Below, in pieces: positions 770 through 61,000 of a stretch of DNA of 64,000 nt; within the stretch, counting starts at the first letter, position 1; each line of letters begins with the position of its first letter. The translations under genes and the position numbers were made by a program. The notes under the pieces were generated by a model. The model saw only the letters and a list, made by a program, of their open reading frames with translations. It ran no database searches and was not told the origin of the DNA. The stretch is from Podarcis liolepis (taxonomy: Eukaryota): NCBI GenBank assembly GCA_965112155.1, contig OZ218099.1; one strand, 5' to 3'.

Positions 770-938
770 CTGTATTTTTCGCTCTATAACACACACCTGA
801 CCATAACACACACATAGTTTTTAGAGGAGGAAAATCCGTAGGCATGCCACCTGTAGGCATTCCCTCCGTAACACGCACAGACATTTCCCCTTACTTTTTA
901 GGAGGGAAAAAGTGAGTGTTATTGTGCAAAAAATACGG
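770..938. mobile_element. pogo/Tc2-like MITE, short member of the CCGTATTTTT-TIR family
   Basis: TA/CTGTATTTTTCGC ... GCAAAAAATACGG/TA; subterminal layout matches the 13163 and 27948 elements. Confidence 0.8.
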
Positions 939-3549: not shown

Positions 3550-4505
3550 GTCACCTCACCTTGAAAAGGATATTGTAGGTTCAGAAAAGGGGATGGGAAT
3601 ACCTCCCTATGAGGAAAGGTTATAGTTTATTGGGGCTTTTTAGTTTAGAGAAAATGTGAGTAAGAGGTGACAGAAATGTATAAAACCAGGGATAGCATGA
3701 AGAGAGCGGACAGAGGAAAGTTTTTCTCTATCACTCCTATCACTAGAACATGTGGACATCCAGTGAAGCTGAGGGCTAGAAGATTGAGGACAGACAAAAG
3801 AAAATACTTCTTCACAGAGACCATTGTTAAACTATGGAACTCTCTCCCACAGGAGGCAGTGATGGCCACCACCTTGGATGGCTTTAAAAGAGTCTTAGAC
3901 AAATTCATGGAGGATAAAGCTATCAATTGCTATACACAGTCAAAGGCAGTATGTTTCTGACTACCACTAGCTGGACACTGCAGGAGGGGAGATTACTCTT
4001 ATGCTCACATCTTGTTTATGGGCTTCCCATAGGGCATCTGGTTAGCTACTGTGAGAACAGAAAAAGGTAAAAGACTCCTGGATGGTTAAGTCCAGTCAAA
4101 GGCGACTATAGGGTTGCGGCCGTCATCTCGCTTTCAGGCCGAGGGAGCCAGTGTTTGTCCACAGACAGCTTTCTAGGTCATGTGGCCAGCATGACTAAAC
4201 CGCTTCTGGTGCAATGGAACACCATGACGGAAGCCAGAGCTTACAGAAACGCCGTACCTTCCTGCCACAGCGATACCTTATATATCTACTCGCACTGGCA
4301 TGCTTTCAAACTGCTAGGTTGGCAGAAGCTGGGACAGAGCAATGGGAGCTCACTCCATTGTGGGAATTCGAACCGCTGACCTTCTGATCGGCAAGCCCAA
4401 GAGGCTCAGTGGTTTAGACCACAGCATCACCCCCATGTGAGAACAGAATCCTGCACTAGATAGGTCTTTGGTCTGACCCAGCAGGGCTCCTCTTATGGTG
4501 TTAAG
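3550..4505 (+). mobile_element. CR1 LINE 3' fragment (interrupted by a Sauria SINE)
   Basis: ORF2 C-terminal-like text RTCGHPVKL...RTDKRKYFFTETIVKLWNSLPQEAVMATTLDGFKRVLDKFMED, followed by CR1 3' UTR. Confidence 0.85.
4063..4435 (-). mobile_element. Sauria SINE
   Basis: Reverse-strand tRNA-like head and ACCTTT tail; 13-bp TSD TGTGAGAACAGAA (4050-4062, 4436-4448). Confidence 0.9.
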
Positions 4506-5165: not shown

Positions 5166-5285
5166 CAGGCATCCCCAAACTCAGCCCTCCAGATGTTTTG
5201 GGACTACAATTCCCATCATCCCTGACTACTGGTCCTGTTAGCTAGGGATGATGGGAGTTGTAGTCCCAAACCAGCTGAAGGTCCA
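5166..5285. mobile_element. Palindromic squamate MITE (GACTACAA-TCCCATCATCCC family); decayed copies near 2830-2970, 20548-20670, 22820-22960 and 57930-58010
   Basis: Internal hairpin TTTGGGACTACAATTCCCATCATCCCT ... AGGGATGATGGGAGTTGTAGTCCCAAA. Confidence 0.7.
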
Positions 5286-6592
5286 AGAAGAACACAACTC
5301 AGATGATGGGACACGCTTCATAGGGCTACATCTCTCCAGCGCCATGTTGTGTGTGTTACAGCATCACTAGCTACCAGCTTATTTTCAGGCGCAATTGTGA
5401 TTACTAGAAGATGTACAACCAATGTTGTGGACAGGTGGAACAGACGTCCTCTTTGCTGAGCTTCTAGTGCATGATTGAGACTTTCTTGTTCCTGCAGGCA
5501 TTCAAAGGTAATGTTTGGCTTTATGACAATTTTAAAAATCATTTTATTGTCCCATTTTCTGTGGATTTTTTTTTTAAAAAGTTTGCTTAGAAATGTGAAT
5601 ACTTAAGTGTTATATAAATGTATTAAATACATAAGGAAATGCTGGTTAGGACCTACAAAGCCCAAAGAGTTTGGGGTTATGTTACCTGATGGACTGCCTT
5701 CTTCCATACAAGCCTGTCCAAGTTATGAAACTTCCCAGTTGCTTCTCTCAGTCCCACCCATAGCAGAGGCAGATTTGACAAAAACACAAGAAAGGGCCTT
5801 GTAAAAGGCTGCACCCACTGAATTTCAGAACTCAGACTCTATAGGGCCCCTCTATTTATTTATTTTTAACCCTCAGGCAGGCCTATCCCAAGGGCTCAAC
5901 AGTGTATAGAAACTATTTAAAAACAACAGAAGAATTTAAAACGGGGGAAAAACACTATAGATTTACATGTAGCCACTTTGCATATGGGCAGCTATGGCAA
6001 ACTTAACCTACCTTTGTGTGAAAATAGAAAGAAAATAAAGTTCTACTACAATATTTAAAAATAAAATCACCTCAATTTAATTAGAAAAGGGGAATAGAGA
6101 ACAGGAAAAGGTAAAGCACAAGAAATTATGTTTCCTTTATGAAAAAGAGGTTGCCATAAGGACAGTTGTAATAAGAAATTCATCAGTACTTGGGGAAAGA
6201 ACACAATGATACCTAATAAAAATATATACTTCTCTCTCTCTTACTATCTGTTGGCTGCTAACATCATGTAGCATTTAAGTGGCTTTTTAAAAAAGAACAA
6301 GGAGATTCATCAACAGCATCTTTATTACGACCACAGACCAACATAAGTTAAAATAGAAACACACAGTAATTTAGGAAATAAAACAGATAAAAGGAGTGAC
6401 TCAGAGAAGGGGGGATGCATGAGGGAAACTTCTTAGAGAGTTAAGAGCAAGCAATTGCAAAAGTAACTACAGAAGGGAGGGTGCAAGAGAGGGCACAGGT
6501 CTGGCGTATGAGCCTTCAGTTTAAGTCTGGTGCATGACCCAAAGCATTCTTCCCCGAATGTCCATCATAGCAGCACAAAATCTGGCTGCCGA

Positions 6593-6641
<49 letters not shown>

Positions 6642-6993
6642 TTATTATTTATATCCCGCCCATCTGGCTGGGCCTCCCCAGCCACTCTGGGCGGCTTCCA
6701 TAAAAACCAAAAATACAGTAAAATATCACACGTTAAAAACTTCCCTGAACAGGGCTGCCTTAAGATGTCTTCTGAATGTCAGGTAGTTGTTTATCGCTTT
6801 GACATCTGCTGGAAGGGCGTTCCACAGGGCGGGCGCCACTACCGAGAAGGCCCTCTGCCTGGTTCCCTGTAGCTTTGCTTCTCGCAATGAGGGAACTGCC
6901 AGAAGGCCCTCGGCGCTGGACCTCAGCGTCCGGGCAGAATGATAGGGGTGGAGACGCTCCTTCAGGTATACTGGACCGAGGCCGTTTAGGGCT
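6593..6993 (-). mobile_element. L2-clade LINE 3' end with (TTA)n tail
   Basis: Minus strand encodes ...[41 protein letters not shown]...; (AAT)n at 6593-6640. Confidence 0.8.
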
Positions 6994-11847: not shown

Positions 11848-12177
11848 CAGGGGTCGGCAACCTAAGGCCCATGGGCCACAAGCAGCCCATGGGGGTCGTT
11901 TAACTGGCCCATGGACCCCCGCTGCCCACTTGGTCGGCTCCCGTGCGCCACACTAAACCAGTGCGGAGCAGAGCAGGGACCGCCTTCCGTGACGCTGGCT
12001 GGCTTCCCATTGGCTGCAGGAAGCTCCTGCAGCCAATGGGAAGCCGCGCATGCCTCCTCCGTGTCAGAAGGAGCGCCGGAAATAGCATCTGCACATGCGT
12101 GCATGCGCAGTCCGGCCCACCACACCATCTGAGGGCCTGTGAACCGGCCCAAGCCACAAAAACTTTGCCGACCCTTG
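11848..12177. mobile_element. hAT-Charlie-like non-autonomous element inserted in a SINE
   Basis: CAGGGGTCGGCAA ... TTGCCGACCCTTG; 8-bp TSD CACTACAC (11840-11847, 12178-12185). Confidence 0.9.
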
Positions 12178-13162: not shown

Positions 13163-14003
13163 CCGTATTTTTCGCACCATAGGACGCACCGGACAATAGG
13201 ACGCACCTTTTTTTAGAGGGGGGAGAACAAGGGAAAAAAATTCTTCTGCTCTCTGCCCAGTGCCCCTTCAGTGAAGCGGCAGGAGGCGCTGCGCAGAGAG
13301 TGGGAGAATTTCCCCCCTCTTGTTTTCCCGCTCTAAAACAAGGTGCCGTTTAAGGTGCGTTCAGGCGGCTACCTTGGAAGCCTGGAGAGCGAGAGGGGTC
13401 GGTGCGCACCGACCCCTCTCGCTCTCCAGGCTTCAGGTTCCTTTCAACCTGCTCTTTGGGGCTGGCGGGGGGAAGCCCACCACCAGCCCCAAAGAGCAGG
13501 TCAGGGAGCAGCGGAAAGGCGCAGCAGAGAGGCTGCTGCCATAGTCACGCGTCACTTCTCCAGCTGGGAGAGTGTCGGGGGGCTATGGCTTCTTTAGCCC
13601 CGCGCGCGCTCTCCCGGCTGGAGAGGTGACGCGCGCCTATGGAGGCTCCTGCCATAGGCGCACGTCACCTCTCCAGCCGGGAGAGGGTCGCAGGGGGGCT
13701 GCTTTAGCCCCGCGCGCGCTCTCCCGGCTGGAGAGGTAACGCTCGGCTATGGAGGCTCCTGCCATAGGCGCACGTCACCTCTCCAGCCGGGAGAGGGTCG
13801 CAGGGGGCTGCTTTAGCCCTGCGCGTGCTCTCCCGGCTGGAGAGGTGACACGCGGCTATAGAGGCTCCTGCCATAGCCCCGCGTTACCTCTCCAGCCGGG
13901 AGAGGGTCGCAGGGCTATGGCGTCTTCGCTCCATAGGACGCACACACATTTCCCCTTCATTTTTGAAGGGGAAAAAGTGCGTCCTATAGAGCGAAAAATA
14001 CGG
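13163..14003. mobile_element. pogo/Tc2-like MITE with internal ~110-bp hairpin tandem array
   Basis: TA/CCGTATTTTTCGC ... GCGAAAAATACGG; units start at 13538, 13651, 13761 and 13870. Confidence 0.85.
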
Positions 14004-15400: not shown

Positions 15401-15860
15401 ACACGAAGGTCTGTATAGTTAAAACTATGGTTTCCCCAGTAGTGATGTATGGAAGTGAGAGCTGGACCATAAAGAAGGCTGATCACTGAAGAATTGATGC
15501 TTTTGAATTATGGTGCTGGAGGAGACTCTTGAGAGTCCCATGGACTGCAAGAAGATCAAACCTATCCAGTCTCAAGGAAATCAGCCCTGAGTGCTCACTG
15601 GAAGGACAGATCGTGAAGCTGAGGCTCCAATACTTTGGCCACCTCATGAGAAGAGAAGACTCCCTGGAAAAGACCCTGATGTTGGGAAAGATGGAGGGCA
15701 CAAGGAGAAGGGGACGACAGAGGACGAGATGGTTGGACAGTGTTCTCGAAGCTACCAGCATGAGTTTGACCAAACTGCGGGAGGCAGTGGAAGACAGGAG
15801 GGCCTGGTGTGCTCTGGTCCATGGGGTCACGAAGAGTCGGACACAATTAAACAACAACAA
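15401..15860 (+). mobile_element. BovB (RTE) LINE 3' end
   Basis: RVPWTARRSN..LKEISPECSLEGQIVKLRLQYFGHLMRREDSLEKTLMLGKMEG.RRRGRQR.RWLD, ending GGGGTCACGAAGAGTCGGACAC + (CAA)n. Confidence 0.92.
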
Positions 15861-16249
15861 AATACCACTTGGAAATTTTAGGCAAGGGTGGCATATACTT
15901 TTATAAATAAAATCATGGGCATAGAAACAGTTCAAACAATTGCACAAATAGCAACTAACCCCCCCACACACATACAGAGAGAGGACAACACATACGTAAA
16001 ATAGTATCAATTCCAATGCCATACGGTCTAAAATATCGGTAGGTAACAGGAAACGCGATATTAAAACAGCATTGTTGCACCAAAGGCAGCGGCTCCAGAG
16101 CCGCAAAGATACTGATGTTATTAATTACCGGTAATTTGTTTTTAAGCAAACCTGAGAAATAGTGATGCAGAGGGTATGGTAAAGGAAGCGGAGACCACCT
16201 CCTTCCCCGGGCCAGCCTCTGCCACCCAGCTTTAATCAAACGAGACACT

Positions 16250-17570
16250 TTTCCCCGCTCGGCCATGACCTCTTTGAGCACCGAGCGACTGCGAGGTCTG
16301 TCCCGCGTGGCTTCGAGAGCCCGCGCCCGCAGCGTTTCCACGGGGAAACCGCCCGGCCGCGACAGCCCCACGAGGCGAGACGCCGCTTCCTCCCGGGGCT
16401 GAGAGAGGGAAGGTGGAAGGTGGAGGCCGACCGACTTTAAAACAAAGCGAGAAGACGAGGGAGTTGCCGGGTCAGGTAAAGGCGCGCGGAGCTGTGCGCG
16501 CCACACACACCCGAGCAAGAAAGGCCGGCCGAGCACAGGCCAACCGCGAGAGGCCCGAAGCCGCGAACGAGCTCCATTCGTCCCGGGAAAGTTCCTCGAC
16601 GGCGACGGGAGAGACCGGGCGAGCGGCAGAAGAAGCAGGAGGACGGAAAAGCGAAGGGAGACGCTGAAGCCTCCAAGCGCCTGTTCGGTTCGATGTGGCC
16701 CGCGCGAAGCAGGGGATTCCCGCCCCTCAGCGCGCGCCCCCGCCCCGCTTTCTTCCCCTGCCCGGCTGCAAGAGCAGCAGGTGAGCGCGTCCGGCAAAAG
16801 TTGAGGCGGAGCGCGCGCGGGCGGAGGGCGGAGCGAGCGAGCGAGGGGAGGGCGGTCCCGAGGCGGAGGCAGCGCCGCTTGACTGCCTTTCTCTTTTCGG
16901 GGCAGCGCTCTCGGCCTCGGAGCGCCGAGCAAGTCCTGCGCTTCCTGGCGAGGGTCCTTCTCGCGAAACGGGTGAGTGACTCGTTGGCGCGCGCGGGCCG
17001 CCTCATACCTGCTGCTGCGGCGGGCCGCCACTTTCGCGGGGGGGGGGGGAGTAAGGAGGAGGGCGAGGTAGTTCCTGCTCCGCCTGCCTCCTCGGTGAAT
17101 GAGGAAGCGGCGCGGGCAGCGCCTCCCCATCCCTTTTCGAAGTGAGCGAGTGTGTTTGTGTGTGTGAGAGAGAGATTTTATCTCTCGCCCACCCCACTTT
17201 CCGGCGCTGAGGGGTTGTGCGAATGGGCTGAGCACTTCTTCTCGTCAGAGGAGCGGGACCCTCCGGCGCTCGAGTCGCTGCCTGGGCTGGGTGAGTTGGG
17301 CGCTTGCCTGCCTCTCGTCTGGGTGTGCTGGGTGGCACACTTTCGCGACAGGCGCTCGGAGTTGCCCTTTCTCTCTTTCTCTTTCTCGCTCCCTCTTTCC
17401 TGCTTTTCGCTTCGCAATCGGGGGCAGCCCGGCACGGGGCAAGGCGCGCGCGCCCTCGAGCGGGTCTTGCCCATGGCGGAGGGGGCGCGTTGCACAACCG
17501 GGGCGAGAACACAGGGCGACTGAGTTTTAACATCCCGCGGAGGTTTGTCTCCACCGGGACTTCCTCGTTT
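16250..17570 (+). promoter_or_regulatory. PRKCD: CpG island / probable PRKCD promoter with non-coding first exon(s)
   Basis: Non-repetitive, very GC/CpG-rich 1.3 kb in AT-rich surroundings. Contains GC boxes, a kappaB-like GGGGATTCCC (16712-16721), and consensus splice donors at 16781, 16972 and 17291. It is the only non-repeat CpG island upstream of the ATG exon. Confidence 0.85.
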
Positions 17571-17807
17571 TAAGAGCCTCCATGTTTTCTTTTAAGTGCT
17601 CCGCCAAATTCTTGCAAATCGAATGGTTGACTTAGTCAGGGGAGGGGGTGGGGCTGATGGGCTTGGACTTTTCTCTCTAAGCTCACTGCATATACTTGTA
17701 TGGTGCAAGTTACCCTCCTCAAATTTCTTTTCTGAATGGTCTCTAGCACCTTTAGGGGCTTTGTTTTTTTTAAACCCAACAAACTTAAAGACAAACTTTG
17801 TTTAACT

Positions 17808-18720: not shown

Positions 18721-19092
18721 AGAGGGATGCGGGTGGTGCTGTGGTCTAAACCACTGAGCCTCTTGGGCGTGCTAATCAGAAGGTCGGCAGTTTGAATCTG
18801 TGTGACGAGGTGAGCTCCCATTGCTCTGTCCCAGCTTCTGCCAACCTAGCAGTTCGAAAGCAAACCAGTGCAAGTAGTTAAATAGGTACTGCTGTGGCGG
18901 GAAAGTAAACGGCATTTCTGTGTGCTCTGGCAGTCCTCCGTGCGCCAGTAGTGGTTTAGTCATGCTGGCTACATGACCCGGAAAGCTGTCTGTGGACACA
19001 TGCCAGCTCTCTTGGCCTGAAGTGAGATGAGCACCACACCCCATAGACACCTTTGACTGGACTTAACCGTCCAGATGTCCTTTACCTTTACC
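18721..19092 (+). mobile_element. Sauria SINE
   Basis: GGGATGCGGGTGGTGCTGTGG head, CCTTTACCTTTACC tail; TSD TTAATAATAATAT (18708-18720, 19093-19105). Confidence 0.9.
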
Positions 19093-22533: not shown

Positions 22534-23554
22534 TATATTGCTGAGATCTAATGTGAAAATTCACGATCCATTTCCTTAAAATCACAACTTTGCTTAATAT
22601 ATGGCTTTCAAATAATTTAAGAGGCTACTGCATTTCTCCTTTCTTCTTGCATGCATTGCTTCTATTTCATTTTCAGCCACGTACCCTACTTCTCTTACCA
22701 TGGCAGAGAGCAGACTGGCTAGTCCTGCCTCAGGCTGTTGTACCTTTGATGCTGAGATGGAGAATTCAATTCTCTTTTAAAAAAACAAAAAAAAACCCTT
22801 TCAGATTTATATATGCAGCTGTATCAGGAAAGGGGAGCCTCTGGCTCTCAATTGTTGTTGGGTCCCAACCTTCAGCCTCAGCCACCAAGATGAATGGTCA
22901 GAGATGATGGGATATGGAGTCCAGAAACACATGGGGGGGGGGACACAGGTTCCCTCATCCCTGAACTGCATCCATTCAGAGAAAAACACAATCTTCATGT
23001 GGAACAATAAAGCCCTAAATCAGTATAGCAGCTGAACTTGTCAACATACAGTCCTTTTCATGCAGTTGTTACTGGCAGGCTGCTATAAAAGTAACACCAG
23101 TTTCTGCAAGCGGAATTTGAGGGCAGTTTAGCATAAATAGAAACTTGGCTTTTAGGTATTTTAGTTCTCTGAATTACTATGCAATTTGTTTACCACACTG
23201 CCCAGTCATGTATTTTGGTGTTGTTTATGTAAGGTACCTTCTTGGACATATTTAGTGGTGATTATATTGCGATTGATAGTGTTATAAATAATTGTGATGG
23301 CCATGTAAAACTGTAAGAATCTTGCATTGCTGCATTTACTATTCCTATTCTAAGTGTATCTAAAACATTTAATTCACTCTGGAAGTGTGCTGCTCTGCAT
23401 AATCTAGTTTATGATTATGCCTTTTAAACAGATAAGAAGCAGCAGGGAATCAAGCCTGTGTGAACTGCCTATGAACAGTAAAATAATAAATAGTAACAAA
23501 ATGTATGTCTCTTCTAATTTGATTGTCACATTCTCCTGCTAGATCCAAGTTCTT

Positions 23555-23740
23555 GCTCCATCCTCCATGTGACAGCCCTTCAGATATTTGAAGATGGCTC
23601 ATATCTCCTCTCAGTCTCCTCTGTTCCAGGCTAAACATACCCAATTCCCTCAACCTTTCTTCATAAGGCTTGGTTTCCAGACCCCTGGTAATCTTGGTCA
23701 CCCTGCTCTGTGCATGTTCCAGCTTGTCAATATTCTTCTT
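23555..23740 (-). mobile_element. CR1 ORF2 fragment
   Basis: [33 protein letters not shown]. Confidence 0.85.
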
Positions 23741-23968
23741 AGAACACCACTGACACGTGCTTCTCTGCCTCCATGTCTTCCAAGAGGATTTGTCACCTTT
23801 CGTTTTTGTACATAACCATGTTTAGCATTATTTCTACACTAGCATTTTTGCTAACCATGGACATGGCTGATCCAGTTTTTCAATCATGACTAGGACAAGG
23901 TTTTCAATTTGTGGCTTGATATAAAAATGATTATCGTGGTTAATTCATAAAATTATTTTAAATGAGTA

Positions 23969-24120
23969 AATCATAGAAATGATTATCATGGGTAAAAATG
24001 ACCATGGGTAATTAAAAAAAAAAAGGAAAGGGGGTCAGTTTTCTTACACCAAACTGACCCCCTTTCCTTTTTTTGAATTACCCATGGTCATTTTTACCCA
24101 TGATAATCATTTCTATGATT
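23969..24120. repeat. Long near-perfect inverted repeat (foldback)
   Basis: ~70-bp arms with a 9-nt spacer (24042-24050), flanked by the direct repeat ATGAGTA. Confidence 0.95.
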
Positions 24121-27382: not shown

Positions 27383-28045
27383 TATAACTAGCAGCTCTCT
27401 ATATTAATTAAGCATGCATGATATAGAGCATTTAAAAAATAGATTTTTAAAAAATCCAAAGACACTGATCATATTTCTAATCTTTTTCTTTAAGCGTTAC
27501 CTCAGCCCAGCCATATGCAGATTTAAGTGGGATGCACAGTGCAATCCTAAACAATGTCTATGAAGAAGCAGGTCCTATTGAGCTCAGTGGGTCTTAGTAT
27601 GAGATAAGCATGCAGAGGGTCACAGTCTAAGTCTATGGAAATAAATGCCTTTAAACCCATCTTAATGCTGCTGAGGATCAGACTGTATTGATATAAACTC
27701 CTTAAGCCACGAAGCAGACATCTCTCTGGTTTACTGAGTTCTTTTAAGATCTTAAGTTTTAAAGCATTTAAATGTTGATACACCCTAGAATAGGGTGGTG
27801 GCAGAGACACACAGTAAGGGTGGGTGCAAATGGTTAAATGAAAGCAGTTTCAGTGATGAATTAACAGTAGTTCTTAGTCTTCCAGCAAATATCTGGGATA
27901 ATTTTTGCATGTAGCCATGACACAGTTCCTTATTGTACATATATGTACCGTATTTTTCGCCCCATAAGACGCACCGGCCCATAAGACGCACCTAGTTTTT
28001 TGGGGGGGAAATAAAGGGGAAAAAAATTATTTCCCCCCCAGGTGC

Positions 28046-28758
28046 GCTGCGCTACACCAGGAGCTTGGGGCGTGCGGAGCTCAGCACGCCCCAAGCTTCT
28101 GCGTGCCGGCAAGCAGTCCGCTAGCCCTGGGAGAGCCGCGGGGCTCTCCCAGGGCTAGCGGATCGCTGCGCTACACCAGGAGCTTGGGGCGTGCTGAGCT
28201 CAGCGCGCCCCAAACTTCTAGGTGCGCGCAGCACTCCGCTAGCCTTGGGAGAGCCGCGGGGCTCTCCCAGGGCTAGTGGATCGCTGCGCTACACCAGGAG
28301 CTTGGGGCGTGCTGAGCTCAGCGCGCCCCAAGCTTCTGCGTGCGCGCAAGCAGTCCGCTAGCCTTGGGAGAGCCGCGGGGCTCTCCCAGGGCTAGCGGAT
28401 CGCTGCGCTACACCAGGAGCTTGGGGCGTGCTGAGCTCAGCGCGCCCCAAGCTTCTGCGTGCGCGCAAGCAGTCCGCTAGCCTTGGGAGAGCCGCGGGGC
28501 TCTCCCAGGGCTAGCGGATCGCTGCGCTACACCAGGAGCTTGGGGCGTGCTGAGCTCAGCGCGCCCCAAGCTTCTAGGTGCGCGCAAGCAGTCCGCTAGC
28601 CTTGGGAGAGCCGCGGGGCTCTCCCAGGGCTAGCGGATCGCTGCGCTACACCAGGAGCTTGGGGCATGCTGAGCTCAGCGCGCCCCAAGCTTCTGCGTGC
28701 GCGCAAGCAGTCCGCAAGCCCTGGGAGAGCCGCGTGGCTCTCCCAAGGCTAGCGGACT
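28046..28758. repeat. GC-rich minisatellite A, six ~119-bp units
   Basis: Units start at 28046, 28165, 28283, 28402, 28521 and 28640 (GCTGCGCTACACCAGGAGCTTGGGGC...). Confidence 0.95.
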
Positions 28759-28778
28759 GCTTGCGTGCACCTAGAAGC

Positions 28779-29200
28779 ACAGGCTGCCGCCCCAAGCCTC
28801 GCGCACCCGGTGGACCTCCTGCCGGGTGCGCGAGGCTTGCAGACACTCGCCCGAAGCAGGGGGAGCCCTCCCGAGGGCTCCCCGTGCTTCTGGCGACAGG
28901 CTGCCGCCCCAAGCCTCGCGCACCCGGTGGGACCTCCTGCCGGGTGCGCGAGGCTTGCAGACACTCGCCCGAAGCAGGGGGAGCCCTCCCGAGGGCTCCC
29001 CGTGCTTCGGGCGACAGGCTGCCGCCCCAAGCCTCGCGCACCCGGTGGGACCTCCTGCCGGGTGCGCGAGGCTTGCAGACACTCGCCCGAAGCAGGGGGA
29101 GCCCTCCGCAGGGCTCCCCGTGCTTCGGGCGACAGGCTGCTGCCCCAAGCCTCACGCACCCGGTGGGACCTCCTGCCGGGCGCGCGAGGCTTGCAGGCAT
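28779..29200. repeat. GC-rich minisatellite B, ~3.6 x ~118-bp units
   Basis: Units start at 28779, 28896, 29014 and 29132 (ACAGGCTGCCGCCCCAAGCCTCGCGC...). Confidence 0.95.
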
Positions 29201-29280
29201 TCGCCCCATAAGACGCACCCCGATTTCCCCTTCATTTTTGGAGGGGAAAAAGTGTGTCTTATGGGGCGAAAAATACGGTA

Positions 29281-29530
29281 CATTTGTACCTTGGAAGTCG
29301 AACGGAATTCATTCTGGAAGTCCGTTCGACTTCCAAAATGTTCAGAAACCAAAGTGCAGCTTCTGATTGGATGCAGGAAGTTCCTGCAGCCAATTGGAAG
29401 CCACGGAAGCCCCGTCGGACTTTTGGCTTCCAAAAATAGTTTGCATTCTGGAACAGTCACTTCCGGGTTTGCGGCGTTCAGAAGCCAAAACTTTCGAGAA
29501 CTAAGCTGTTTGAAAACCAAGGTACGACGG
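29281..29530. mobile_element. Tigger/pogo-like MITE abutting the previous element
   Basis: TA/CATTTGTACCTTGG ... CCAAGGTACGACGG/TA; shares the TA at 29279-29280 with the 27948 element. Confidence 0.7.
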
Positions 29531-29671: not shown

Positions 29672-30024
29672 GGGACACGGGTGGTGCTGTGGGTTAAACC
29701 ACAGAGCCTAGGACTTGCTGATCAGAAGGTAAGTGGTTCGAATCCCCGCAACGGGGTGAGCTCCCATTCCTCGGTCCCTGCTCCTGCCAACCTAGAGGTT
29801 TGAAAGCACGTCAAAGTGCAAGTAGATAAATAGGTACCACTCCAGTGGGAATGTAAACGGCGTTTCCGTGTGCTGCTCTCGTTCGCCAGAAGCAGCTTAG
29901 TCATGCTGGCCTCCTGACTGTATGCTGTATGTATGGCTCCCTCGGCCAATAAAGCGAGATGAGCGCCGCAACCCCAGAGTCGGCCACGACTGGACCTAAT
30001 GGTCGGGGGTCCCTTTACCTTTAC
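29672..30024 (+). mobile_element. Sauria SINE (different subfamily from the 4063/18721 copies)
   Basis: GGGACACGGGTGGTGCTGTGGGTTAAACCACAGAGCC ... CCCTTTACCTTTAC; TSD TATTRCATTTAT (29660-29671, 30025-30036). Confidence 0.9.
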
Positions 30025-45545: not shown

Positions 45546-45660
45546 ATGGCTCCCTTCTTACGAATATCATTCAACTCCTTTGAGCTAGGACCTATGCCGA
45601 ATCAAGGGGAGCAACTACAGCCATTCTGTGCAATAAAAATGAAAGAGGCCTTGACTACAG
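45546..45660 (+). CDS. PRKCD: PRKCD coding exon 1 (exon begins at 45524 after polypyrimidine-TAG; ATG at 45546)
   Basis: [38 protein letters not shown](E); Kozak gaaATGg; donor G/gtaag at 45661. Confidence 0.97.
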
Positions 45661-45974
45661 GTAAGAAGATTGATCAGTTGAATTGATTCCATTTGTGGTC
45701 TGGAATTCCTCACATATGGTCTGGCAGGACCAGAGTCTAATTGTGTGCTTGTTTATGAGAAAGGAAATCTCACTGAGTCGGTAGCAATGTACTCCAAAGT
45801 AAATGTGTATACGATTACAACCTTAAGGTGTCAAAGGATGCAGTTTCTAGTCTAATGTATGTGGCATAGGCCAGTTTAATCCCAATGACAGGGAAATAGT
45901 GAAGAATATGGCTATTTGTGTACAGCATCATTTGGATTTAAGTCATCTGATCATAGGCAATGTATCAGGAAGAG

Positions 45975-46033
<59 letters not shown>

Positions 46034-49000
46034 TTATTTATTCCCCAGCCACTCTGTGTGACTTCCAACAAAATATTAAAATACCATAATACATCAAACA
46101 TTAAAAGCTTCTCTAAACAGGGCTGCCTTCAGATGTCTTCTGAAAGTCTGGTAGTTATTGTTCTCTTTGACATCTGGTGGGAGGGCGTTCCACAGGGAGG
46201 GCGCCACTACCGAGAAGGCCCTCTGCCTGGTTCCCTGTAACTTGGCTTCTCGCAGTGAGGGAACCGCCAGAAGGCCCTCAGCACTAGACCTCAGTGTCCG
46301 GGCAGAACGATGGGGGTGGAGACGCTCCTTCAGATATACTGGACCGAGAGATAAAGGTAGCTTTGAATAAAAAATTCAAATGGATGTACCACCATGCTGG
46401 TATGTACTATGAATTTTTAACACCTTATTTTTTAATGTGAAAGCTGAAGTTAATCAGTTATTATTTCCATTTTTATTATTTTAGTCTTGTTGCATTATTT
46501 TAAATCCAAAGCATAATGTGAGAATGGATTCGGTGTGAAATGCCACCCCCGTCATATCTTGAAAAGATACTTCCTTACTACAATCCATTACTAGAGCCGG
46601 AAGGCTTTGTTGTCCAATTAGCAGAAGATTGTTTTGTTGCCTGCTTTTCTTCTCTCTTCAGAGTCCATTATTCAAAAGTCACTTTTTTGGGTGGAACTCA
46701 ACTCATCAGCAGGAACTGTCTTGTGGTTCCACCTACATATTCTGTCATTCTTTTTAGAAGAAGACCACTGTACACAGGCATGCGAAGGATTATTATTATT
46801 ATTATTATTTTAAAAATCATAGTTCAGAGAAGGGGGTGCAAAAAGAATTTCTCCTTTCGTTACTGAAAGCCTAATTCAGGTTGTTGTTACCTTTCAATGT
46901 CATTTCCCATCCAGTTCAGTGGTGCACCCATCTGCCTTTCTGCTGCCTATAACTTCTGTGCTTTCCATTCAGTTTTCATGAAGGTTTTACATGTTGATAC
47001 AGTACTTCCATGTGTGTGGTGTGGTGTGGTGTGGTGTGTTGCGTGCGTGCGTGCGTGCGTATGTGTATGTGTATGTGTGTTTTGCACTGAAAACTCTCGG
47101 CATCTGGGAGGAAGGCTTTCCAACTAAAAAAAAGAAAAAAACCACACCTTTGGCTAAAGAGGTCAGGGAAACAAGGTATGCCTGCATCTTAGGAAACAGT
47201 ATCTTTGATAACCTTTTATCAGGATAAGGAGGTTCCCTAGAGCTTCGATGGATAAACCCTGGCCCTGTGTGACTCCTTTCTTAGAAGGCTCAGGAGTATT
47301 GCTGGCCTTCCTTGGTGAACTTTAGACCCTTAAAAATATTCTTGAGGCCTTTTCTTTTGCACTGCATGAAAACCAATTGTCACCCAGAGCTTGGACTAAA
47401 AATAGTTACATAATTAAGTGCTTTCTTTCCTTCTAACTTTAAGCTAATGGCTGTTGCTATTAGAACTAGAAAAGCTCGTTCGTTTCCATTCTGTATGTTC
47501 CATGGACCCTTTTTGGAAAGAAATGAATGGACCCTTTTTTTTCATTTATTATGGAACAAATGCATATCCATACTGTGAATGAAGATTTAAAAGTATTGCT
47601 CTGGTTTATTTTAAATATTTTGGGATACGCAAATAGTTCAGCAAAATGGATAAACTGAAAATCTTTAATCTTTTATCTGTTCATAAGTAATACATTTACA
47701 CTTTTATGTTAGTGTAATCAGTAAGGGAGAGCATGTTGAACTTGAACAAAAAAAATATCATTTGCCCTCTGTCTCATAATTAACATTTTCTAATTCTGGT
47801 CCATGTACCAGTAAAATTGGTGCACCCAAACGTCACTCAAGTGAACATTTTCTGGCCAAATGTAAAATGGGGAAAATATTTTCTTAGGCCCAGGCTGATT
47901 GCTGCATAGTTGGATTTCCTACTTTTAGGCCAACACAGTCAAGCATGTGTTAGATCACCATGACACCTTTAAAATCTTCAAGAAAAAAATGTAACAGATG
48001 CTGGAGGGGATACTAGAGCAGCATTTATCTTTATCTGGAAATTCATAGGCTGAGGACATTGTGACAGAAGTTGCCACAACAAAATTGCAGAAAGGGTGGA
48101 GGTGGGGAGCTCTGGGATTCACTTTGCATTAATTGAAAACATCTGCTCTGAGTAGCTGTTACTAGAAAGGATCTCTGAGACCAGGTAAAAGCTTTTTGGC
48201 AGAAGCAGAGGAGATAAAGCAGAAGTCTGCAGAATGCAGAATATCCTCAGGTGGCTATTTGTGAACATTTGGCAAGCTAACATCAGCCTGCTTGTCAAAT
48301 ACCTAATTTATAATGTTGGTTTTGGCAGTCCTTACCTAATAAAGCCAAACTGAGGTGCTATTCTTTACTACTGTTTGGACAGTCCATCATACTGAGAGAC
48401 GTGCATCAAACAAAACAGCTGTTGGATAAACATAAACTTAACTCTGAACTTAAATCCTATGTCAGAATATTAAGGAACCAATCACTCTCCATACAGTTTA
48501 CAGAGATTCAGCTATTTATCATGGCTCAACTAACACAGTTGCCAAAATTGGGCCTGGATATTAGGCCACATTTGGAAATCTGAGAAACTCTTGTGGGCAT
48601 CACTATAAAATGGCTGCCCTTGGGCATCTATCTAGTCACAGAAAAGCTGCTCAAGGGATCTTTGCTGTCATGGAGGACAAACAACTTTACAAAAGAGAGA
48701 GGGAGAGCATGCCTATAAGAGAGAAGTTGGCTCTGAATCCCAACTTTCAAAACAGACATTTCCCGTGCCCCAAAGCACAACCGCATAACCCATTTCACAG
48801 AAGTAACACACATCCACCCCCCAAAAGCAGCTAAACAATTTTGGCAATTCCCCGAATCTGGAAAAGCTGTGGGGGCATTGGGAAAATCAGGGGAAATCCA
48901 CTCACCACCATAAGGCACAAAAAACAGGCAAACTCTACTGAAGAAGTCAAACAAGTGAGGCCCACCCATGTACCCCAAAAAGCAACACACATGTAGAAGG

Positions 49001-58000: not shown

Positions 58001-61000
58001 GTTTGGGGAATGTCCAATCAGAACCACAGTTTATTTATTTGACAAATTCATACACTGCTTCTCATCATGAAGTCATCAGAGTGGTATACAAGATGCACAA
58101 ACAAGAAAAGCATCTCTACAAAATCTAGAAATCAAATCCAATCACTTCTGCTGATGTGCAGTTAATATTTCATACGGTGTTCTGAAGGTTTGTGGCAGCT
58201 GACTTCTTCAGCTTGACTGTTCTCTCTCATCCACTTGGGTACAGCCTCCATTTTCTAAGACAGCTTCTCCCATCTGGGACCACTTTGAAATGCAGGTAGC
58301 TAGGTATTAACAGCAGGTTGATGTTTCCCTACTTCAAAAGTGTATTGTGACTTCTCTAGGAAAAGAAAGATTCACGTGTTTCAGTGGGATCAGCTGCATA
58401 TTCTTAATAAGACCTTGGGCTGATAAAGCAACTTGTATGTCTGAATATATTATGTTTTATAAGTTTTGCTTGTGACTAAACCCTCCCCCCATTTCCTTTA
58501 CAGGGGCCTAAACAAGCAGGGATATAAATGTAGACGTAAGTTAATTGCATTGTCTTTTATTCTTGGGTGGTAATAGCCGGTGAGAAACTTTAGTAGATGT
58601 AGTACAAATTGTTGATAATCACTATAGGTAACCTATTCTTTTAGATGCCAGGTAAAACACTACTTTTTCTGTCAGGCTTTTAGAGGCTGATCATTTAAGT
58701 CATTTTTACAATTCTGTTATGTGGTTTATGAGAGTTATTTTAATGTTTCTGTTTATCTTGTTACCTTATGTTTGTAAACCACCCTGTGACCATTTTGGGT
58801 GAAGGGTGCTATAGAAGTAGCTGAATAAATAAGATTAAATTGCAGCAGTTCCTAATTATTCATTTTTGTTTTAACATTTAAACACCTGCTGAAAACATTT
58901 CTGTGCTAACAGGCTTATGCAGGCAATTAAGAAAACATGTTCCTGTAGTTGATGCTGGTTTAAAATTTTATGTAGTTTTAAAAATTATATCAAGATATTG
59001 TTGTAAACTACTTTGATTTTTTATGATATAGTGGTATGAATATATTTTTTAAATAAATAAATATTACGCTTGTCTAGGGCTACCATTTTCCAGATAACAA
59101 AAGGGCCTTTTATTTTTTTTGTCACAGAAAAACAAGAAGGCATCTTGTGATACCTTAAAATGCTAACAGATATCTTTAAAATTCAACCCTAATAGTAAAA
59201 GCTTTCCAATGTATCATTTCTACTGATGTATATAAAGTTGTAACTATCATACAACTGATAAATGAAAATCAGAGAAAATAACATTTTTGTGTAGAATACT
59301 TTATTTATATATATCTCCCTCCATGAAACTTAACTGCCTGTATCTTTCTATTCCTGTTGCTCTTCTGAAGAATGTAATGCTGCTATTCACAAAAAATGCA
59401 TTGATAAAATCATTGGGAGATGTACTGGTACTGCAGCGAACAGCAGAGATACAATGGTAAGTAATAAAACATTTTATATGTTCATTAACCGCAGTATGTA
59501 TTGTGTGTACAAAAAAAAGACATGCAGCGGTAAAGAAAACCAGATATGTGCTTTTCACATATTATGTAAATTTGGCATGCTTATTTACTTTTGCCTATTA
59601 TTTTGTTTCTTAAGAATCAAGTTATCAGAGATCTTGAGCGTGATTTATTTTTTGCAAGTGGGAAGGCAAGAAAAGACAACATGTGGGTCTGAGCAGCTAA
59701 GCAAATTGCTGTTCAGTTTAAAGTTTTGTCTTTTGGTCCAGGTCCTGCAGTTCAGCAGAAGTTATCCAAAAGGCCCAAGAGAATTTTTTAAAAGTCTTTA
59801 AGGAACTATGCAGTCTTGTTCCCTTACCCTGGGAGAAAGGGATTTGTGCAATCCCTACCTTAAGTCTGTCTGACCAAGCACAAAGAAGTTCCTGAGTTTA
59901 AAGAGACAAAAAACATATGCTTCCTTCTTTTGCATAATTTGTCAGAATAAAGGCATTCTTCTTGACTTGCTCAAAAACTCCTCTATGCATTGGCTCACCT
60001 GTCATTTCCCACATGTATTGATGTTTTCCTATATTTTGTGGCTGCAGATATATCTGCTCTAAAGAAACGCAATGTGTGTGAATGAGTGGGCAGGATACTG
60101 TGCTTCAAATTTGCCATTTCAGGCACAAAGAAGCACAGTATACACACAACACTGTCCATGGAGACTTTTTCTTGGACATTTTAGAATACATTTTTATTTA
60201 GAATTCTTGTGGGCAGGGTCTCTAATATGTTAAATTCTATAAATGGTTTTGTTTTTTTATTTTGTTCAACTTGTTGCTTGTGTCAACCTTCTGGCTACGT
60301 GATCGGATAAATAATGGATTTCTCATTCCCTCTCCTTGAAAATCTTGTGTGAGAGAAATCTCCAAATACTTGTTTTACTCCCCCCCCCCCAACATAAACG
60401 TGTCTTCAGTTTCAGAAGGAGCGCTTCCACATCGATATGCCTCACAGGTTCAAAGTTTACAACTACATGAGTCCTACCTTCTGTGATCATTGTGGTAGTC
60501 TTCTCTGGGGACTTGTTAAGCAAGGATTAAAATGTGAAGGTACAGTCTGTTTCTTTTGGCCATTACAAGCTTTGGGCAAAATAGCTGTGCTAGGGGGAAT
60601 TTTGAAGAGGGAAGGGATCAGTTTCTTGATTACAGTAGCACCTTGGCTTACATTACCCTTGGCTAACGTAAACTTCAGGTTGCGAAAGCAGCAAACGCGG
60701 AAGTGTTTCACTGCGCGCGCATGCGCAGAAGCGGTTTACCGCTTCTCCTCCGGTTGCGAAAACCTCAGGATCTGGCCGGACCTCTGGAACGGATCCCGTT
60801 CGAAACCGGAGGTACCACTGTATATGCTTGTACTGTATTTAAGAGTTAAACAGAAAAGTATGCGCATGGTTTGTGTTTTCTAAAGTTTTTTTTAAAAAAA
60901 CAAAACAAAACACAACTTAACAACCTTCAACTGTGTTCACAAGTAAAAAGAAATAGATGATCTCCAAACCAAATGCTTTTCTTGTTGTTGTTTTTTCATG

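Follow-up and report, generated by a model that had tools for sequence, protein, structure and literature searches.

A Passer-like non-autonomous transposon in the 5' region of a lizard PRKCD gene holds unrelated arrays of alternating hairpin half-units

The window, a 64,000-nucleotide (64-kb) stretch of Podarcis liolepis DNA, contains a 1331-bp element, designated E3, that consists of an outer shell enclosing two tandem arrays, A and B. What had appeared to be a double-hairpin repeat unit is a single half-unit of 52-62 bp repeated in alternating orientation, and the same design recurs, in a third sequence, in array C of a second shell copy. Most probably E3 is young and non-autonomous, descends from a lacertid Passer transposon and gained its hairpins by template switching and its arrays by slippage; no role for the host was seen.

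The element, its ends and its surroundings

The features of E3 were as follows.

27946..27947, unstranded: left TA target-site duplication (TSD)
27948..27974, plus strand: left terminal inverted repeat (TIR), 27 bp, beginning CCGTA; by eye, equivalent to the end with which the Passer rows of Anolis, Zootoca, Varanus and Vipera open
27975..28039, plus strand: left subterminal shell, common to the copies at 770 and 13163
28045-28756, unstranded: array A, 6.0 x 119 bp (Tandem Repeats Finder, 95% matches)
28757..28778, unstranded: terminal arm, extended, of the hairpin that closes array A
28779-29206, unstranded: array B, 3.6 x 118 bp (Tandem Repeats Finder, 97% matches)
29193..29251, plus strand: right subterminal shell, common to both other shell copies
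29252..29278, minus strand: right TIR, 27 bp, one CpG transition from the left TIR
29279..29280, unstranded: right TA, which also serves the abutting older TA-flanked element at 29281-29530

Both boundaries of E3 (27948-29278) were exact, with a TA on either side. The first-pass annotation had described a TA-flanked element with perfect TIRs; the flanks and boundaries stood, but the TIRs were near-perfect, agreeing at 26 of 27 positions with a CpG transition as the sole mismatch. The TIR pattern, with up to three mismatches allowed, gave four matches in the 64-kb window as compared with none in 100 shuffles, and no match in bacterial and archaeal genomes. A second copy of the inner TIR motif (27975-27993), followed by T, G and A runs, was located in the left subterminal shell, and the right shell held an inner copy at 29202-29219. 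The longest open frame within the span, 262 codons, was derived from the repeats and had no Pfam match, so a coding function was rejected; a transposase was absent.

Passer is a DD35D family of the pogo superfamily with a transposase open reading frame of 400-500 amino acids (PMC7386202; PMC9976928), and in its squamate rows the ends begin with CCGTA, most TIRs measure 24-29 bp and the target site duplicated is TA (PMC9976928 Table S1; PMC7386202 file 3). E3 likewise had CCGTA ends, a TIR shorter than 30 bp, a TA TSD, a doubled inner motif, and T and purine runs. The comparison with Table S1 covered the first ~400 nt of each row. By eye, the doubled inner motif and base runs of the left shell were found in the rows of Anolis, Zootoca, Varanus and Vipera, while the right shell resembled the row of Podarcis muralis, in which GC-rich tandem repeats lie just inside the end. 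The rebuilt target site of E3, a single site, agreed with the Passer consensus AAGTACTT (PMC9976928) at 6 of 8 positions. Unlike autonomous Passer, E3 had no transposase and its interior was replaced by hairpin arrays. Because the ends are of the Passer type and the transposase is missing, E3 is classified, on sequence grounds, as a non-autonomous Passer derivative. Ends of this kind would presumably be labelled Tc2 by RepeatMasker.

Tandem repeats or hairpins were also seen by eye in the first 400 nt of the autonomous Passer rows of Podarcis, Gekko, Cuora, Pelusios and Pseudonaja (PMC9976928 Table S1). A derivation of the units from autonomous Passer was not borne out: four of five short unit motifs had no match in the Passer table, within the ~400 nt given per row. 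One 10-mer from the B linker had four matches in the table, all four by eye in the Podarcis muralis row, but the motif was picked post hoc and the matches are a lead only. In the main text of PMC9976928 the words MITE, non-autonomous and tandem occur 0 times.

Self-comparison of the window revealed two more copies of the shell, giving three per 64 kb.

770..938, plus strand: E1, third shell copy, 169 bp, TA-flanked
13163..14003, plus strand: E2, second shell copy, 841 bp, TA on the left and GA on the right
13529..13914, unstranded: array C within E2, 3.5 x 110 bp, alternating half-units

The number of internal units per copy was 0 in E1, 3.5 in E2 and 6.0 + 3.6 in E3. E1, an older shell copy, was array-free and CpG-decayed, with an unstructured interior (z -0.7). 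E2 contained, in addition to array C, three single hairpins: a fold-back at 13203-13346 that includes its own left subterminal sequence, a perfect 58-bp palindrome at 13377-13434 and a further hairpin at 13447-13501. The shell is conserved and the interiors differ completely. The idea of arrays tied to this shell had been exposed to two checks, whether other copies have invariant, array-free interiors and whether the arrays occur mostly outside the TIRs. It survived both within the window: of the two other shells, E1 was array-free and E2 held an unrelated array of the same design, and no A, B or C sequence was found beyond the shells. The designation of E3 as a MITE was appropriate insofar as the element has TIRs, a TSD and no coding capacity, but copies of 169, 841 and 1331 bp are not uniform, and MITEs are short, about 400 bp (PMC9659126). 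E3 is MITE-like and not a member of a uniform MITE family.

The surrounding gene encodes protein kinase C delta (PRKCD).

16.1-17.6 kb (approximate): CpG island, observed/expected ratio ~1.0
45546..45660, plus strand: likely first coding exon of PRKCD, located by an N-terminal motif; its end is approximate
60410..60547, plus strand: PRKCD exon, part of the C1 domain, matched to PDB 7knd

Of the 35 residues of the exon at 60410-60547 that aligned with PDB 7knd, 34 were identical. The island at 16100-17600 is likely the PRKCD promoter, and E3 lies between it and the likely ATG exon at 45546, which is consistent with the earlier placement of the element in a 5' intron of the gene.

Several other repeats were observed in the window. 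An element at 11848-12177 has 13-bp TIRs and an exact 8-bp TSD; judging by the length of the TSD, we take it to be hAT-type. The older element at 29281-29530, which shares its left TA with the right end of E3, has degenerate TIRs (73%) that resemble the Anolis Tigger TIR given in PMC7386202, and two hairpins inside. A 45-bp palindrome at 12001-12045, within the hAT-type element, matched a hairpin of this Tigger-like element with 85% identity across 53 bp (p 0.003), which indicates that one hairpin module is shared across two superfamilies. An isolated AT-rich long hairpin (90% over 155 columns) with no visible element ends occurs at 23969-24120, and an imperfect hairpin of ~96 bp at 5186-5281 has a partial copy at 2855-2934. 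A repeat of ~370 bp present three times (4063-4436, 18724-19091 and 29672-30024; 73-80% alike) is probably a Sauria SINE. Four regions (6591-6980, 45974-46348, 15490-15906 and 23450-23821) are likely LINE 3' fragments, two of them with AAT microsatellite tails; those lacking the tails resemble RTE and CR1 ends. No Pfam match was found for three frames tested in the LINE-like regions.

Architecture of the arrays

Tandem Repeats Finder confirmed the two arrays that had been noted by inspection, six units of ~119 bp and ~3.6 units of ~118 bp. Two near-perfect palindromes had been reported in every A unit, and both were indeed present in all six, with 0-2 mismatches per arm pair. The parallel statement for array B was correct for hairpin 1, which occurs four times; hairpin 2 occurs only three times because the last B unit runs into the right shell. 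Folding of single units gave -58.2 kcal/mol for A (z -10.0) and -61.2 for B (z -11.1), and none of 200 shuffles equaled either value. The local alignment of A with B remained within the range of shuffled sequences (p 0.11 and 0.30), consistent with the original observation that the arrays share a fold and little primary sequence; common ancestry of A and B was thus not shown. The edge unit A1 and a P0001-type B unit (described below) gave p 0.017, a value that fails correction for the 72 pairs tested. Array C showed no relation to B (p 0.35-0.59); any relation to A was marginal at best (p 0.08 and 0.012) and came from a short GC-rich match.

When each half-unit was compared with the reverse complement of the next, the two agreed at 51 of 62 columns in A, 48 of 63 in B and 43 of 57 in C. 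Much of this identity resides in the hairpin arms; the linkers align partly in A and C and less so in B. Array A has 12 palindrome centers spaced 59-60 bp apart, and half-units in the three arrays span 52-62 bp. The double-hairpin unit is therefore one 52-62-bp half-unit repeated in alternating orientation, and the layout is that of an inverted triplication after expansion (direct-inverted-direct, with two hairpin junctions). The two palindrome centers per unit in otherwise unrelated arrays follow from this layout, which necessarily gives both. The two hairpins per unit reported at the outset are both real, although they constitute one feature. The equal periods noted for A (119 bp) and B (118 bp) are likewise real, but they are not a constant of the family; a fixed period was rejected because array C repeats every 110 bp. 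Of the 29 strong palindrome centers in the window, 20 were in E3 and 3 in E2, a count that for E3 is inflated by the array copies.

The units of A were 98-100% alike in the middle of the array and 89-95% at its edges. A3 and A4 were identical in sequence, so that five of the six units are distinct. A2 and A5 share a two-base variant, but a three-unit higher-order repeat was not established given four differences private to A2. The terminal 43-nt arm of A had one mismatch to unit A5 and five to the adjacent A6; the closer match to A5 than to its neighbor indicates that the units were later shuffled. The A/B junction was abrupt, and the linker that follows hairpin 1 of B resembled the adjacent shell at ~29192-29206.

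Origin of the hairpins and arrays

Arrays A, B and C all have two palindrome centers and direct repeats one period apart. The most probable route to this geometry would begin with a local template switch in which a short stretch is copied backwards, giving a near-perfect hairpin in a single event. A second, overlapping fold-back would then produce a small inverted triplication with the order L-hairpin-L'-hairpin-L. The two-hairpin unit would multiply when the direct repeats slip or exchange unequally, a step suggested by the homogeneous middles, diverged edges and displaced terminal arm. Now and then one arm may be re-copied from the other, so that a set of compensatory changes becomes fixed together ahead of the following expansion. 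Gap repair after excision and lagging-strand replication are two candidate triggers. E3 itself would have been mobilized in trans to a TA site in the PRKCD 5' region. Both the E2 fold-back and the B linker are shell-like, which indicates that some hairpins were built from local material. Several observations are less favorable to this scheme: no copy at the 1.5-unit stage was present among the three shells in the window, which counts against the triplication route, and the edges of A and B lack the full half-units that a pure triplication predicts, so that one has to suppose that sequence was trimmed or replaced at the A/B junction. The far larger segments of published small inverted triplications and the lack of a second array A in the searches described below also weigh against it.

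Template switching had been proposed from the hairpins themselves, and comparison with a second species strengthened the proposal. A search with the plus-strand frame of E3 gave one match among 5093 candidate proteins, P0001, a 152-residue hypothetical protein of Podarcis lilfordi (NCBI) that consists of approximately four B-like units translated in shifting frames. The minus-strand frame gave no match among 7744 candidates and the frame of array A none among 14. A library-wide search returned P0001 and two weak matches (E 4e-4 and 5e-4) to the right end of the shell, and a second array A was not found in the three protein searches plus the library-wide search. P0001 is probably a false gene model, as judged from its translated repeats, and it shows that B-like arrays exist outside this assembly, in agreement with a lacertid host. 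Copies 2-4 of P0001 were back-translated and compared with the B unit; one segment that required gaps was dropped and copy 1 was excluded as more diverged (15 minimal changes in 111 nt). Of the 11 forced base changes, none broke any of the 42 Watson-Crick pairs, three pairs were changed on both sides and one or two mismatches were repaired, one position being ambiguous. Among 200,000 random placements of the changes, none left all pairs intact and 0.016% gave at least three two-sided changes. The covariation comes from one translated record, back-translated from amino acids, and the three two-sided changes may represent one event. A single arm-copying event, of the kind proposed in PMC8794818, could account for all of the paired changes in a stem, and selection could do so too. 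The arm mismatches common to units A2-A6 indicate that arm copying is episodic and preceded the latest expansion.

Selection among copies, in which structured interiors raise mobility by bringing the ends together or by favoring replication-linked copying, also predicts the stem covariation. Strong hairpins in other DNA elements of the window, and the subterminal repeats or hairpins visible by eye in the first part of the autonomous reptile Passer rows (Podarcis, Gekko, Cuora and Pelusios), are in keeping with such an advantage. We nevertheless consider selection unlikely, since 1) E1, which is array-free, transposed too, 2) fixed arm mismatches were amplified across A2-A6, 3) A, B and C have no conserved sequence and 4) the origin of arms of 18-43 bp is left unexplained.

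Alternatively, the shell may have taken in pre-existing satellites or host sequence, with A and B possibly joined by recombination between copies. Capture was proposed for Xenopus miDNA4 (PMC12628747), and it would fit the unrelated sequences of A, B and C, the abrupt A/B junction and the hairpin module common to the hAT-type and Tigger-like elements (p 0.003), which implies that interiors are exchangeable. However, the B linker and one E2 hairpin come from shell sequence, A, B and C were not found in the window outside the shells, and three independent captures would be needed, all of them of alternating arrays of similar size. Capture is accordingly considered improbable, and template switching followed by slippage remains the preferred account.

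The CpG content raised the question of a host function. The observed/expected ratio was 0.79 in array A and 0.76 in array B as compared with 0.34 in the window, and E3 as a whole (1331 bp, GC 0.68, ratio 0.79) lies above the usual CpG-island thresholds for length, GC content and observed/expected ratio. Its island-like composition and its location in the PRKCD 5' region would suit an unmethylated CpG island or a regulatory RNA hairpin for the gene. When shared variants were counted once and polarity was taken from the consensus, between-unit transitions in A, B and C affected 10 of the 314 CpG positions, as compared with 13 of the 1200 remaining positions (odds ratio 3.0, p 0.016); for A and B alone the values were 5/234 and 7/894. 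E1 lost 8 of its 11 shell CpGs, four by transition, as compared with 15 of 103 other positions. Although the effect is modest, this pattern is closer to that of young, methylated DNA than to that of an island under protection. The description of E3 as a mobile CpG-island mimic thus holds for composition only. The enrichment of CpG transitions, the decay in E1, the CpG transition that is the only TIR mismatch in E3, the ratio of 1.0 in the promoter island and the lack of any Rfam match at the gathering score make a regulatory role for E3 highly unlikely. Membership in a known RNA family was rejected, the 81 Rfam matches, none at the gathering score, being nearly all to generic miRNA hairpins. 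The CpG richness of E3 is best explained by its youth and by the GC-rich DNA from which it was built. On the present evidence, E3 has no host function.

An assembly artefact would be suggested by the identity of A3 and A4 and by the difficulty of assembling GC-rich hairpin arrays, which could make the copy number inaccurate. That the arrays as such are artefacts is hardly credible, in view of five distinct units among the six of A, the independent array of the same design at 13529 and the B-like array in a separate Podarcis lilfordi record.

A broader and tentative extension of the favored account is that squamate Passer shells are hotspots of template switching, such that the transposition cycle repeatedly makes alternating-orientation minisatellites with half-units of ~55-60 bp out of any sequence enclosed by the ends, re-copies their arms, spreads the products and possibly trades modules with hAT and Tigger elements. 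If this were true, transposons would be driving the formation of structured, CpG-rich repeats, and a single genome would offer thousands of natural replicates.

Comparison with known systems

The origin of the first duplication of a tandem repeat is poorly known (PMC3879986). The unit geometry of E3 and E2 records the likely steps, and one transposon lineage shows the same design three times, each time in an unrelated sequence. Should the shell be equally common throughout the genome (three per 64 kb), many intermediates would be present in a lizard assembly, from which the rates of template switching, the tract lengths and the re-copying of arms could be measured in the vertebrate germline. 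The arrays also mimic CpG islands and yield false gene models, of which P0001 appears to be one, and in introns they could form double-stranded RNA.

Internal repeats in MITE-like elements have precedent, as had been pointed out for Xenopus: the available descriptions of DTC84, miDNA4 and Xstir all include them. In DTC84, from the clam Donax trunculus, the units measure 156 bp and contain a single 12-nt palindrome, and the putative TSD is AA (PMC3879986). DTC84 is like E3 in that its flanks enclose, as a cassette, a short array whose copy number varies, and in having two ordered repeat types with a palindrome in each unit. However, its two types are close variants of one another, whereas the arrays of the E3 shell are mutually unrelated, and the units of E3, unlike those of DTC84, are nearly wholly paired and alternate in orientation.

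Xenopus miDNA4, a Tc1/mariner element, and Xmix/Xstir are, like E3, vertebrate non-autonomous DNA elements with an internal monomer or array (reviewed in PMC12628747, PMC9659126 and PMC6947457). In the sections of these reviews consulted, there is one satellite motif per family, the proposed origin is capture or the joining of neighboring elements, and the descriptions include neither alternating half-units nor several unrelated arrays per shell.

Hairpins formed in one step and compensatory changes at several bases have been attributed to template switching (PMC8794818), and inverted triplications have been noted as substrates for slippage (PMC13334657). Small inverted triplications resemble arrays A, B and C in their direct-inverted-direct order, two hairpin junctions and proneness to slippage. 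They average 148/160/148 bp (PMC13334657), approximately 150 bp per segment, whereas A, B and C have half-units of 52-62 bp that have multiplied into arrays within a transposon shell. Inverted triplications and template switches are reported as single events, the settings being cancer genomes, FEN1 mutants of yeast and RNA genes (PMC13334657, PMC8794818); the triplications are ascribed to Okazaki junctions under FEN1 deficiency. A, B and C work like small inverted triplications and are not classed as such given their size.

No non-autonomous lizard Passer elements with hairpin arrays were found in the open-access literature searched, and a consensus may already be deposited in Repbase or Dfam. 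Cassette-like flanks around internal repeats are already known, as DTC84, miDNA4 and Xstir illustrate; what is new is the lineage, the occurrence of several unrelated arrays of one design per shell, the alternating layout and the paired changes in the stems.
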